Shown here: positions 14,491 through 16,972 of the stretch, piece after piece
Position numbering within the stretch: position 1 is the stretch's first letter
How the letters are laid out: each line of letters opens with the position of its first letter
Assembly: GCA_051532055.1 (NCBI GenBank)
Contig: JAOPTX010000003.1
Location: forward strand, 89,064-153,063
DNA: 64,000 nt
Direction: 5' to 3'
From: Fibrobacterales bacterium
Lineage (GTDB): Bacteria > Fibrobacterota > Fibrobacteria > Fibrobacterales > JAOPTW01
The notes under the pieces: model-generated
Told to the model about the DNA's origin: nothing
Database searches by the model: none
The model's input: the letters and a program-made list of their open reading frames with translations, nothing else
Translations under genes and position numbers: made by a program

Positions 14491-15981
14491 CTAAATACTA
14501 TACCAACCAGAAACTAATGGTTTTTGGTTGGGTGTAGTATCCATAGTAACAGTCTTTTTGCGACTGTAAGATTTTAGACTATCCAGACCAAGTTCTTTTC
14601 CATATCCACTATTCTTAAAGCCACCAAAGGGAACTTCACTCGAAAATGCCCCATAGGTGTTCACCCAGACCGTTCCTACATTTAAGGCTCTTATTGCGCG
14701 CTGTATATATGCTTGATTATTGGTCCATATTGAAGCGGCGAGGCCATACTCAGAACTATTAGCCAGTGTTATAGCGTTATTAATTGAATTATAAGGCGCG
14801 GTAATCAGAACGGGCCCAAATACCTCTTCATTCCATATATCCATATCCGATGTTACGTTACTTAATATGGTAGGTGGGAAGAAAGCACCTTTTGTAGGTA
14901 TTTCACTCAGTTGGAGTGGGGTTATTCTCACAGCACCTTGGCCAATAGCTTGAGCAACCATTTTTGATACTTTCTCTCTATGGGTTGTACTGATGAGTGG
15001 CCCCATATCTGTTGTGGGTCGCTCTCCTGAGGCTATTACTAATGCAGAGGCTTTCTGTGCAAGAAGCTCGGTAAATTTTTTGTAGATAGATTCATGAATG
15101 AGAAGACGTGATCCTGCGACACACATCTGCCCTTGGTTCATAAAGATGGTTGTTAAAATGGTGCGAGCAGTGCTTTCTAAGTTACAATCTTCACATACAA
15201 TAGTGGGGGACTTCCCCCCAAGTTCAAGAGTAACGGGTGCAAGATTAATTGCGGTGCTCTCTACAATTGCTCGTCCTGTTTTGGTAGACCCCGTAAAGGA
15301 TACTTTAGCGATACCCATATGACCAGTCAGTGTTGGACCGATCTCTTCGCCAATGCCGGTTACTACATTAAGTGCTCCTTTGGGCAGGACTGTATCACTT
15401 AGTTTTTCACACAACGTTAAAAGTGACGCTGAGGTGAGCTCTGATGGTTTCATCACGATAGTATTGCCCGCAGCAAGGGCAGGTGCAATTTTCCACGCGG
15501 CCATTAAGAGTGGATAGTTCCAGGGTACAATCTGTGCAACAACGCCAAGGGGTTCATACTGAGTGTACGTGAAGGTACTGCCGTCTGTAGGGAATGTCTC
15601 ACCCTTAAGTGAGAGTACCAGTGATGCATAGGTTCTAAAAACCTTTGCCGCTTCGGGAATATCAATAAGTGATGACTCTTTGATGGGTTTGCCATTTTCC
15701 TGAGTCTCTATTTGCGAGAGTAACCCTGAGTGCTCTTCAATAACTTCAGCAATTTCCCGTAGGATGTCGGCTCTGTCGTGATACGAAAGTGACTGCCACT
15801 CACCTGAGTAATAGCACTCTTTTGCAGCTGTTATTGCTTTATTGATATCCTCAGGGGTTCCTTGTTGAATAGTCCACAGCAGCGCACCAGTGGCAGGGTT
15901 AATAGAATCAATAGTGTTCTCTGTAGTGCCTGTGCACCACTCGCCACCAATAAAGTGGCCATACTCTTTAGACACGATCAA
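14491..15981 (-). CDS. NAD(P)+-dependent aldehyde dehydrogenase
   Basis: 496 aa. Carries the ALDH hallmarks LELGGKSP (catalytic Glu) and FMNQGQMCVAGSR (catalytic Cys). Overlaps the upstream gene by 14 nt. Confidence 0.9.
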   Translation of the reverse strand: MIVSKEYGHFIGGEWCTGTTENTIDSINPATGALLWTIQQGTPEDINKAITAAKECYYSGEWQSLSYHDRADILREIAEVIEEHSGLLSQIETQENGKPIKESSLIDIPEAAKVFRTYASLVLSLKGETFPTDGSTFTYTQYEPLGVVAQIVPWNYPLLMAAWKIAPALAAGNTIVMKPSELTSASLLTLCEKLSDTVLPKGALNVVTGIGEEIGPTLTGHMGIAKVSFTGSTKTGRAIVESTAINLAPVTLELGGKSPTIVCEDCNLESTARTILTTIFMNQGQMCVAGSRLLIHESIYKKFTELLAQKASALVIASGERPTTDMGPLISTTHREKVSKMVAQAIGQGAVRITPLQLSEIPTKGAFFPPTILSNVTSDMDIWNEEVFGPVLITAPYNSINNAITLANSSEYGLAASIWTNNQAYIQRAIRALNVGTVWVNTYGAFSSEVPFGGFKNSGYGKELGLDSLKSYSRKKTVTMDTTPNQKPLVSGWYSI

Positions 15982-16972
15982 GCTCCTTTACGGGAGCAGC
16001 TTTCCAGAGTTCAAAGATTCGATAGAAAGGAGCGTACCATTTTGAGAGATCGCCTATATGTCCTTTAATGAGTTTTAGTTTTTTCTGACTGGTTGCGGCA
16101 AAAGGATCGAGCCTTCCATTAAAAACATGAATCCAAATTTCTCGTTTACCCATGTTAATAAAATCGGCATCATCATCATTGGTGATTTTTGTAAGGACAC
16201 CTTTATTGAAATGCATGTTGTAGATAGTCCCATCATCAGTGAGTTTAATCGCGTAGCGTGTGGTCAAGTCAGAAGCTTCTCCTAGTGAGAGTGCTTCAGG
16301 GTCATTATTAATGAGGGTCTGTAGTTTTTCAATGTGGGCATCAGTAAAGACCTCATAGCTCTCACTAGGTTTTTCAGGGGCTTCTTCTACTCGTTTTGTA
16401 TTTTGGTGCCCAAGGAGGACTGAATTAAGGGTAATCTTGGCTGCTGATTCTGCAGTGTCAGCCAAAGAATATGCCTCAATGAGGGTTTCACCGGCTGCTA
16501 CGAGACCATGTTTTTCAAGAAAAACTATGGAGCTCGTTTGAAATGCGTTAAGTAGTGCAGGGATGTCGGTCACCGTTGGACTTTTCTGTGCGAGCACTGG
16601 GGGCTTTCCTAAGATGAGTGATGACTCATAGGTGCTTGACTCAAGTTCTCTGTTGCAGTTTAATAGGGATAATAGTGTAGTGGGATGGAGATGGACGACT
16701 GCCTTGTAGCTTTCAGTGTTATAGAGCGCAAGATGCATATCGCTTTCAGTAGAGGTTCGTTTGCTGTTTGGTTCAATTAATGAGCCGGTATTATCGATAA
16801 GAAGTAGGTCATCTTCAGTTATAAAACCAAGTGATGTTTGATGTGCCGTTATTAGAATTTCATTCTCATTAAGGCGACAGGATATATTTCCACCCCAACC
16901 TGAAGTGAGTCCTTTGGTAAAGGCCATTTTTCCGATCTCTATTATCTGTTCTATACAACGTTGTTTGCTCAT
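15968..16972 (-). CDS. Class II aldolase/adducin-family domain fused to a C-terminal SCP2 (sterol-carrier-like) domain
   Basis: 334 aa. The N-terminal approximately 200 aa have a class II aldolase pattern (GNISCRL..., metal-site VVHLHPT, EKHGLVAAGETL). The C-terminal approximately 110 aa (YAIKLTDDGTIYNMHFNKG...DADFINMGKREIWIHVFNGRLDPFAATSQKKLKLIKGHIGDLSKW) match the SCP2 pattern. Confidence 0.7.
   Translation of the reverse strand: MSKQRCIEQIIEIGKMAFTKGLTSGWGGNISCRLNENEILITAHQTSLGFITEDDLLLIDNTGSLIEPNSKRTSTESDMHLALYNTESYKAVVHLHPTTLLSLLNCNRELESSTYESSLILGKPPVLAQKSPTVTDIPALLNAFQTSSIVFLEKHGLVAAGETLIEAYSLADTAESAAKITLNSVLLGHQNTKRVEEAPEKPSESYEVFTDAHIEKLQTLINNDPEALSLGEASDLTTRYAIKLTDDGTIYNMHFNKGVLTKITNDDDADFINMGKREIWIHVFNGRLDPFAATSQKKLKLIKGHIGDLSKWYAPFYRIFELWKAAPVKELDRV

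Follow-up and report, generated by a model that had tools for sequence, protein, structure and literature searches.

An aldolase-SCP2 fusion of Fibrobacterales lies in an operon that may process 5'-substituted nucleosides carrying a hydrophobic group

The subject of this analysis is a gene fusion in a 64,000-nucleotide stretch of a Fibrobacterales bacterium genome (GenBank assembly GCA_051532055.1, contig JAOPTX010000003.1, positions 89,064 to 153,063 of the forward strand), referred to below as the window. The gene occupies positions 15968-16972 of the window on the minus strand, starts with ATG, and is an open reading frame (ORF) of 334 amino acids (aa) with two domains, a class II aldolase and an SCP2 fold. 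Six minus-strand genes are packed tightly here, and the fusion is the fifth of them. Both domains had been proposed in an initial annotation, which did not include the minus-strand orientation, the upstream genes that define the substrate class, or the radical S-adenosylmethionine (SAM) partner. The features of the operon, with the fusion divided into its parts, are as follows:

19970..20761, minus strand: nucleoside phosphorylase, first gene of the operon (hexameric NP-I family; related to uridine phosphorylase, DeoD and archaeal MTAP); PNP_UDP_1, E-value 3e-33
19018..20019, minus strand: MtnA-type isomerase converting aldose-1-phosphate to ketose-1-phosphate (IF-2B family); Pfam IF-2B, E-value 2e-53
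17505..19064, minus strand: BchE-like radical SAM enzyme with a B12-binding-type domain; Radical_SAM, E-value 1e-15; B12-binding, E-value 2e-6, below the cut-off
16969..17481, minus strand: 'small', ~160 aa, a fragment of the MtnA C-terminal domain; weak IF-2B matches; likely start at 17451
16415..16972, minus strand: class II (metal-dependent, dihydroxyacetone phosphate-type) aldolase domain, aa 1-186 of the fusion; Pfam, alignment, Foldseek
16349..16414, minus strand: variable linker, aa 187-208; predicted local confidence (pLDDT) ~52 at residues 191-200; mean column identity 0.33
15968..16348, minus strand: SCP2-fold domain, aa 209-334 plus stop codon; Pfam, profile, predicted structure
14491..15981, minus strand: NAD(P)-dependent aldehyde dehydrogenase (ALDH), ALDH1/2-BADH class; Aldedh, E-value 1e-163

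The aldolase half was matched by Pfam Aldolase_II (PF00596) at aa 8-182 with an E-value of 8e-32 and 111 bits (cut-off 22.2). Across 53 aligned family members, E76, H94, H96, H155, and S74 were invariant and N29 was present in at least 90%. By alignment to the FucA motifs, E76 and the three histidines correspond to the metal site, and N29 and S74 to the phosphate-binding residues. Glu76 has been described for DrdA, the 5-deoxyribulose-1-phosphate aldolase (PMC6079011). The best PDB matches found with Foldseek were FucA (2fk5) and DrdA (6btd and 6btg), with E-values of ~1e-14 and TMt of 0.76-0.85. The proposed class II aldolase was thus borne out by a Pfam score above the cut-off, the retained FucA/DrdA ligands, and the structural match. 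The domain scored similarly against DrdA (53 bits), FucA (59 bits), and OtnC-like proteins, and none of the NCBIfam equivalogs for FucA, MtnB, OtnC, RhaD, and AraD came near its cut-off (FucA TIGR01086, 42.6 versus 400; FucA_Meth, 77 versus 250; MtnB TIGR03328, 63.7 versus 137). Judged by its sequence, this half is an intact class II aldolase of no named subtype. Database entries label the fusion 'class II aldolase/adducin family protein' or 'L-fuculose-phosphate aldolase'; the latter, a JGI name, appears over-specific because the equivalog cut-offs were missed.

The SCP2 assignment of the C-terminal half depended on how the protein was scanned. On the whole protein, Pfam SCP2 (PF02036) matched aa 226-304 with 20.6 bits, below the cut-off of 21.3. 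The initial annotation had allowed for a C-terminus that fails to score as SCP2; the C-terminal 130 aa scanned alone reached 23.1 bits, and both the family profile and the predicted structure agreed with the assignment. SCP2 was also matched in 17 of 21 diverse family members (best E-value 2e-10), and the precomputed PF02036 flag is set on ~30 homologues. Searched against the PDB, the family profile matched the Thermus SCP2 protein 2cx7 (E-value 6e-7) as well as archaeal SCP2-like proteins. The domain-only AlphaFold model had a pLDDT of 94.3, and its best 46 PDB matches were all SCP2 folds. Superposition of 2cx7 on this model gave a template modelling (TM) score of 0.83 and a root-mean-square deviation of 1.8 Å; other structural matches included UbiJ-SCP2, human SCP2, the SCP2-like domain of MFE-2, and the C-domains of alkylsulfatases.

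Conservation is tighter in the SCP2 half than in the catalytic half. Mean pairwise identity was 65% for the SCP2 half versus 50% for the aldolase domain, and in 99% of pairs the SCP2 value was the larger. Run against 1.84 billion representative proteins, a profile built from the SCP2 half retrieved only 157 matches, the strong ones all being fusions of ~320-340 aa or fragments thereof; stand-alone SCP2 proteins of 125-145 aa appeared with weak E-values only. This tight constraint, together with the near-absence of the subtype outside the fusion, argues for a specific role, and the sequence comparisons mark the SCP2 half as a specialised part of this enzyme, a generic carrier domain being unlikely. 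The AlphaFold model of the whole protein (pLDDT 92, predicted TM score (pTM) 0.85) contains a single disordered linker at ~187-208, and the pTM suggests that the arrangement of the two domains is fixed. Foldseek with the full-length model returned solely aldolase matches among the top 50 listed.

Homologue searching yielded ~80 full-length relatives of ~330-340 aa with 37-86% identity, in addition to an identical protein in NCBI from a Fibrobacterales metagenome-assembled genome (MAG). The fusion relatives end at an E-value of 5e-61, and the next matches, which are ordinary class II aldolases of ~210 aa, start at 1.5e-12. This abrupt drop and the ~80 relatives of the same length identify the fusion as a discrete conserved family and exclude a gene-calling accident. 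The relatives come only from metagenomes or MAGs, assigned to Fibrobacterales, Latescibacterota, Desulfobacteraceae and other Thermodesulfobacteriota, and Omnitrophota. Among 185,579 species genomes, 16 carry the fusion, every one of them a MAG, and so rare and patchy a distribution fits an accessory pathway better than housekeeping salvage. The concern that the fusion might be a common architecture with a known soluble substrate was not borne out: the SCP2 subtype is nearly confined to the fusion, and our literature searches on the fusion, the cassette, TIGR04076, and DUF2621 found no paper describing an aldolase-SCP2 protein or the pathway proposed below. A 2026 review of lipid-modifying radical SAM enzymes contains no such system, and a review of methionine-salvage paralogues does not mention SCP2.

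The genes upstream of the fusion belong to families that act on nucleosides and sugar phosphates. The best PDB matches of the phosphorylase were uridine phosphorylase 3qpb (E-value 2e-28) and Sulfolobus MTAP 1jds (E-value 6e-20). The isomerase passed the cut-off of the NCBIfam subfamily eIF-2B_rel (189.4 versus 185.85), best matched the methylthioribose-1-phosphate isomerase 1t9k (E-value 2e-43), and retains the THCNT (Cys) and GADR (Asp) motifs, so that it is predicted to be catalytically competent. The radical SAM enzyme, whose true start is likely the methionine of MKVLFLQPP at 19004, carries the cluster motif CPFGCSFC; its best NCBIfam matches, BchE (220 bits) and HpnJ (120 bits), were both far under their cut-offs. 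The protein 'small' keeps the ExRP and DN sugar-phosphate motifs and has lost the catalytic Cys and Asp. In 16 aligned members, E31, R33, P34, D58, N59, and G90 were invariant, and these features mark it as a truncated, apparently non-catalytic paralogue of the MtnA C-terminal domain. The family (~150-170 aa) may serve as a substrate-binding or regulatory subunit.

The fusion overlaps both of its neighbours. The stop codon of 'small' overlaps the start of the fusion as ATGA. At the other end, the 14-nt overlap with the ALDH gene reported initially holds for the longest ORF, which starts at TTG 15981; the likelier start, GTG 15975, sits 8 nt after an AAGGAG inside the 3' end of the fusion and gives an overlap of 8 nt, as in locus L001. 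The ALDH is translationally coupled to the aldolase, with GTG 15975 as its likely start. The best PDB matches of the ALDH were phenylacetaldehyde dehydrogenase 4o5h and retinal dehydrogenase 2; the substrate specificity of neither the ALDH nor the phosphorylase could be read from such matches. A promoter and terminator scan of 14000-28500 was uninformative: promoter-like sites were fewer than in shuffled sequences, and neither end of the operon showed a convincing terminator.

We surveyed the cassette on contigs of family members and in the 16 species-representative genomes, annotated against the window proteins. The 16 distinct main-clade loci represent four or five phyla; all of them had the isomerase and ALDH genes, and the phosphorylase and 'small' genes were found at 15 each. 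The phosphorylase lay upstream of the isomerase at 15 of the 16 loci, and 'small' lay directly upstream of the fusion at the same number. Orthologues closely related to the radical SAM enzyme (57-75% identity, across phyla) lay in the cassette at nine loci and nearby at one more; the cassettes of L006/7, L015, L017, and L004/5 lack the gene. When the search was reversed and a radical SAM profile was run against metagenomes, contigs with close orthologues nearly always bore the cassette if they were long enough. Of 48 loci with a second paralogue group of the radical SAM enzyme (35-40% identity), at least 11 had the cassette no more than 8 kb away. In a divergent sister clade, L025 keeps only 'small' (7528-8028) directly upstream of the fusion, with no isomerase or phosphorylase, and L029 keeps only the phosphorylase. 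As 'small' stands beside the fusion even in this clade, the two constitute the tightest pair of the cassette.

Two variants of the cassette were recorded separately. At L031 (6117-12375; also L030 and L056), phosphorylase, isomerase, radical SAM, and 'small' genes occur without aldolase-SCP2 and ALDH, and continue with a 570-aa long-chain-type acyl-AMP ligase, an LpxL-like lipid A acyltransferase homologue, and a GH79-like protein. In a 694-aa protein at L027 (P0154, 590-2674), a truncated aldolase and SCP2 are joined to Radical_SAM_N2 and radical SAM domains. It lies on a 3.4-kb low-coverage contig with both inner domains cut at the junction and is probably a deletion or a chimera; we did not use it as evidence for a triple fusion or a physical complex.

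Genes related to lipids recurred around the cassette. A HAE3/MMPL transporter with DUF1329 and DUF1302 proteins stands beside it in at least eight loci; this set has been linked to monoterpene efflux in Castellaniella (PMC6394551) and to growth on fatty esters in Pseudomonas (bioRxiv 2020.07.04.188060). In the most divergent main-clade cassette (L005, 2385-3755; L004, 631-2001), a 456-aa LCAT/PGAP1-like lipase replaces the radical SAM enzyme and 'small', and an Amidohydro_2 gene precedes the phosphorylase. Amidohydro_2 also lies directly upstream of the cassette in L017, L082, L084, L095, L097, L105, and L108. At L029, the fusion is followed by a 465-aa protein that has no homology to the LCAT-like protein found at L005. 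L017 has SRPBCC lipid-binding proteins, a phytoene-desaturase-like flavoprotein, and aldehyde:ferredoxin oxidoreductases as neighbours.

Acyl-AMP ligases and an acyl carrier protein (ACP) adjoin the cassette in Fibrobacterales, Omnitrophota, and L046. In the window they form part of an upstream block that is separated from the cassette by a 230-bp gap and is possibly linked to it:

20992..27916, minus strand: upstream block as a whole (Pfam)
26651-27916, minus strand: aminotransferase
25557-26678, minus strand: bacterial GRAS-like Rossmann protein
24394-25584, minus strand: alpha/beta hydrolase (FrsA/DLH-like)
22835-24397 and 21255-22838, minus strand: two acyl-AMP ligases
20992-21255, minus strand: ACP

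The entire block is kept in a second Fibrobacterales MAG (L009). Homologues of the ligase and the hydrolase adjoin the cassette in the unrelated locus L046, and acyl-AMP ligases also precede it in L018, L019, L062, and L065 of Omnitrophota.

A conserved cluster of ~14-17 kb stands ahead of the cassette in six loci (L062, L065, L095 at 146-13873, L097, L105, and L108), on metagenomic contigs that are probably Omnitrophota-like. It encodes, in order, a DUF2621-like protein, a PanE-like reductase, a double TIGR04076 protein, a ketosynthase (KS) with the active site STGCTAG, a Cys-less partner resembling a chain-length factor (CLF), an ACP, a PF04199 cyclase, an SRPBCC protein, a major facilitator superfamily transporter, a short-chain dehydrogenase/reductase-type ketoreductase, a BchE-like radical SAM enzyme, and Amidohydro_2, and it ends with the isomerase/aldolase-SCP2/ALDH cassette. 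From its gene content, this cluster looks like an uncharacterised type II polyketide synthase or fatty acid synthase-like lipid pathway. Among the proteins retrieved with the SCP2-half profile, one of 1104 aa (P0221) combines SCP2, an alkylsulfatase-C-like domain, a PCP_red-like stretch, and DUF2621; the position of DUF2621 as first gene of the extended cluster is a hint that DUF2621 may be linked more widely to SCP2-type domains.

Taken as a whole, the operon is best explained as a route for converting a 5'-substituted nucleoside with a hydrophobic substituent R, with R held by the SCP2 domain, an explanation to which we would give an even chance. The phosphorylase would release a 5-substituted ribose-1-phosphate, and the isomerase would convert it into the 5-substituted ribulose-1-phosphate. 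We infer, with good support from analogy, that the fusion would then cut this compound between C3 and C4 into dihydroxyacetone phosphate (DHAP) and the aldehyde R-CH2-CHO, which the coupled ALDH would oxidise to R-CH2-COOH. The steps are proposed because the same series is established in the DHAP shunt or 5-deoxyribose salvage and in fluoroacetate biosynthesis. The SCP2 domain stands where FucA has a C-terminal tail covering its aldehyde pocket; the domain would bind the greasy portion of the substrate or product, and it may hand the aldehyde on to the ALDH. A hydrophobic chain, either a lipid or a reduced polyketide, is the most economical reading of R because of the SCP2 domain, the recurrent genes for lipid transport and lipid or polyketide metabolism, and the ALDH, whose best-matching structures are enzymes for the hydrophobic aldehydes phenylacetaldehyde and retinal. 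The earlier suggestion of a lipid-tethered sugar phosphate, or of a hydrophobic aldehyde handed to the next enzyme, accordingly has strong circumstantial support from the operon and its lipid-related neighbours, a support that consists of gene context.

Several known systems share parts of this scheme. A phosphorylase, an MtnA-type isomerase, and an aldolase of class II have been experimentally established to convert 5'-deoxyadenosine into DHAP and acetaldehyde (PMC6079011). The DHAP shunt or 5-deoxyribose salvage (MtnP or DrdK, MtnA/DrdI, Ald2/DrdA) shares enzyme families and their order with the operon, as outlined by Beaudoin et al. 2018 (PMC6079011) and by North et al. (via PMC10986504 and PMC12632272). 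The metal site is the same, including the Glu76 of DrdA, and the products are expected to be alike, DHAP and an aldehyde; as with Ald2/DrdA, the aldolase is clustered with an MtnA-like isomerase and a phosphorylase. The differences lie in the fusion itself (334 aa with SCP2 instead of a single domain of ~200-220 aa, and no closer to DrdA/Ald2), in the additional 'small', ALDH, and usually B12-type radical SAM genes, and in the neighbours, which are lipid transport and lipid or polyketide genes rather than sugar transporters. The phosphorylase, too, is of the hexameric uridine phosphorylase/DeoD type and not an MtnP equivalog, and no NCBIfam equivalog cut-off was reached.

In Streptomyces cattleya, the fluoroacetate route turns 5'-fluorodeoxyadenosine into fluoroacetaldehyde by the same logic (PMC6079011). 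That pathway employs fluorinase, the FlB phosphorylase, an isomerase, a fuculose-type aldolase, and fluoroacetaldehyde dehydrogenase. To our knowledge, no other pathway has been described in which the phosphorylase-isomerase-aldolase-ALDH series is complete (5'-X-5'-deoxyadenosine to X-CH2-COOH). Judged by its genes, the operon would have the full series as well, with a hydrophobic carbon chain expected as X in place of the halide, and with SCP2 and radical SAM components that the fluoroacetate pathway lacks. No fluorinase, chlorinase, or DUF62-type gene was present among the Pfam results for the window operon and the related loci. The SCP2 fold is shared with SCPx thiolase, MFE-2, the alkylsulfatases SdsA1 and Pisa1, and UbiJ/UbiT. 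By analogy with SCP2-fused lipid enzymes, we propose that the C-terminal SCP2 domain would recruit a hydrophobic substrate to the catalytic domain. Compared with those enzymes, a fusion to a sugar-phosphate aldolase is undescribed in the papers searched, and the SCP2 subtype is unusually conserved and restricted to the fusion. Both domains and the reaction series are known; the papers we found contain no description of the fusion, its partner 'small', the radical SAM enzyme embedded in the cassette, or the lipid context.

As supplier of the substrate, the co-conserved radical SAM enzyme is the most attractive candidate: like HpnH and MqnE, it would attach the SAM-derived 5'-deoxyadenosyl radical, here at a double bond of an unsaturated lipid. 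In the HpnH/HpnG and MqnE/MqnB pairs, radical SAM adenosylation of an alkene is likewise followed by removal of the base by an NP-I enzyme. In the futalosine route (MqnC/D), only two ribose carbons reach the product, and the C3 unit is lost. HpnH attaches 5'-deoxyadenosyl to the alkene in a hopanoid side chain, and the PNP-like HpnG removes adenine (PMC13459092). The likeness is one of analogy only, as the enzyme here is B12-binding and BchE-like, and trimming would be carried out by the isomerase and the aldolase. On balance, the lipid would be lengthened by two carbons in the form of a carboxymethyl group, and the product would then be used by acyl-AMP ligases, ACP, or acyltransferases, or exported by HAE3/MMPL systems. 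The cassette would in that case use SAM as a radical C2 donor, adenosylating an unsaturated lipid or polyketide, trimming the ribose, and leaving the carboxymethyl acid, while adenine and DHAP would be returned to metabolism; its role would be in lipid biosynthesis or in anaerobic activation of alkenes or terpenes. We regard the use of SAM as a C2 donor as rather unlikely.

A number of points weigh against the hydrophobic-nucleoside pathway or its supply by the radical SAM enzyme. The identity of R is assigned by guilt by association. SCP2 folds do not always bind lipids, the C-terminal domain of Eis being an example, and the phosphorylase is absent at L006, L095, and L082. As some cassettes have no radical SAM gene, the enzyme cannot be the sole source of the substrate. 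It also belongs to the B12-binding BchE/HpnJ-like class, unlike the adenosyl-adding HpnH and MqnE. Class B radical SAM enzymes usually methylate or rearrange their substrates, with 5'-deoxyadenosine as a by-product, and this by-product would itself be a substrate of the cassette. For these last three reasons, namely the several cassettes without the gene, the class of the enzyme, and the release of 5'-deoxyadenosine, radical adenosylation as the source of the substrate is speculative.

Salvage of such by-products could account for the operon differently. It would then be an ordinary DHAP shunt that clears 5'-deoxyadenosine and/or methylthioadenosine, formed in the reactions of the adjacent B12 radical SAM enzyme and of other lipid enzymes that use SAM, to DHAP and acetaldehyde and further to acetate. 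The SCP2 domain would dock the enzyme to lipid-modifying machinery or carry its lipid, as a Rosetta-stone link and not as part of the aldolase substrate site. The enzyme series is proven for 5'-deoxyadenosine, phosphorylase-type clusters exist, and the 5'-deoxyadenosine released by class B radical SAM enzymes inhibits them (PMC6079011); moreover, the radical SAM gene lies mid-cassette in most loci, and the nearby acyl-AMP ligases could activate acetate. We nevertheless consider salvage doubtful, though it is the main rival: L006/7, L015, L017, and L004/5 have no adjacent radical SAM gene and still keep the fusion and lipid transport neighbours, the fusion is much too uncommon to serve general salvage, its SCP2 half is the best conserved part in a confidently predicted domain arrangement, and the aldolase is no nearer to DrdA than to FucA or OtnC. 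A soluble substrate, i.e., a small ribulose-1-phosphate derivative, would leave the SCP2 domain without a lipid, as a lid, an oligomerisation module, or a dock for 'small' or ALDH. The very high conservation of the SCP2 half would fit a protein-protein interface better than a generic lipid cavity, and in the sister clade 'small' and the fusion are inseparable beside an AlaDH-like enzyme and a CoA transferase, with no lipid genes nearby. Recurrence of lipid-related neighbours across several unrelated lineages argues for a lipid-bound domain instead, as do the nearest structural relatives (SCP2, UbiJ, MFE-2, and alkylsulfatase C-domains), which genuinely bind lipids or quinones, and we think a soluble substrate improbable.

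The reactions might also run in the synthetic direction, with DHAP and a fatty or polyketide aldehyde presented by SCP2 condensing to a long-chain ketose-1-phosphate and the isomerase and phosphorylase, reversed, yielding a 5'-alkyl nucleoside, i.e., a nucleoside lipid. Class II DHAP aldolases thermodynamically favour condensation, DrdA takes diverse aldehydes (PMC6079011), and the cassette is embedded in biosynthetic-looking KS/CLF/ACP clusters. The coupled ALDH, of the hydrolytic and irreversible ALDH1/2-BADH type, would however destroy the aldehyde; the gene order matches the catabolic sequence, and no aldehyde-forming reductase is conserved in the cassette, all of which makes synthesis quite improbable. 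Trimming of hopanoids is a special case of the hydrophobic-nucleoside pathway, in which adenosylhopane or phosphoribosylhopane would give a C32 hopanoic aldehyde and then the acid. HpnH/HpnG chemistry yields such a 5'-lipid-adenosine (PMC13459092), the transporter is weakly HpnN-like, and HpnJ is the second-best named match of the radical SAM enzyme. Yet no squalene-hopene cyclase, HpnH, or other hpn gene was present in the window or the annotated loci, the scores remained far below the cut-offs (HpnG, 34.5 versus 187; HpnJ, 120 versus 578; HpnR, 76 versus 650; HpnN, 63 versus 752), and the extended clusters carry fatty-acid or polyketide machinery rather than triterpenoid machinery. Such trimming is very improbable, and we rejected a hopanoid substrate as the general answer, there being no hpn or shc genes and no score above its cut-off.

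Other genes of the window were recorded as context. Directly downstream of the operon, a 2145-aa ORF (7794-14231, minus strand), in which two InlB B-repeat (Flg_new_2) stretches were the only Pfam matches, probably encodes a large protein that is secreted or located at the surface. Another giant protein, encoded at 114-3515, has three CBM_4_9 modules. DUF4423 and Fib_succ_major proteins, from families typical of Fibrobacter, are encoded at 3758-6215 on the plus strand, in line with the Fibrobacterales source of the identical NCBI protein. At 28155-35414, a 1024-aa hybrid sensor kinase (ABC-type substrate-binding domain, PAS, histidine kinase, and receiver) adjoins a 1391-aa SNF2-family helicase.

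The known DHAP shunt and fluoroacetate route handle small, soluble 5'-substituted adenosines; if the explanation preferred here, conversion of a 5'-substituted nucleoside with its hydrophobic group held by SCP2, is true, the operon would represent a version for a hydrophobic substituent. The fusion would then define a new enzyme family that is now misnamed 'L-fuculose-phosphate aldolase', and a function would be given to a conserved clade of BchE-like radical SAM enzymes and to a truncated MtnA paralogue. Biocatalysis would gain a DHAP aldolase built for long-chain aldehydes. Were radical adenosylation also true, SAM would be a two-carbon radical donor for lipids, with relevance to anaerobic hydrocarbon activation and to lipid biomarkers. 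For the bacteria concerned, the pathway would point to unknown lipids or polyketides in uncultured anaerobes of the Omnitrophota, Latescibacterota, Thermodesulfobacteriota, and Fibrobacterales.

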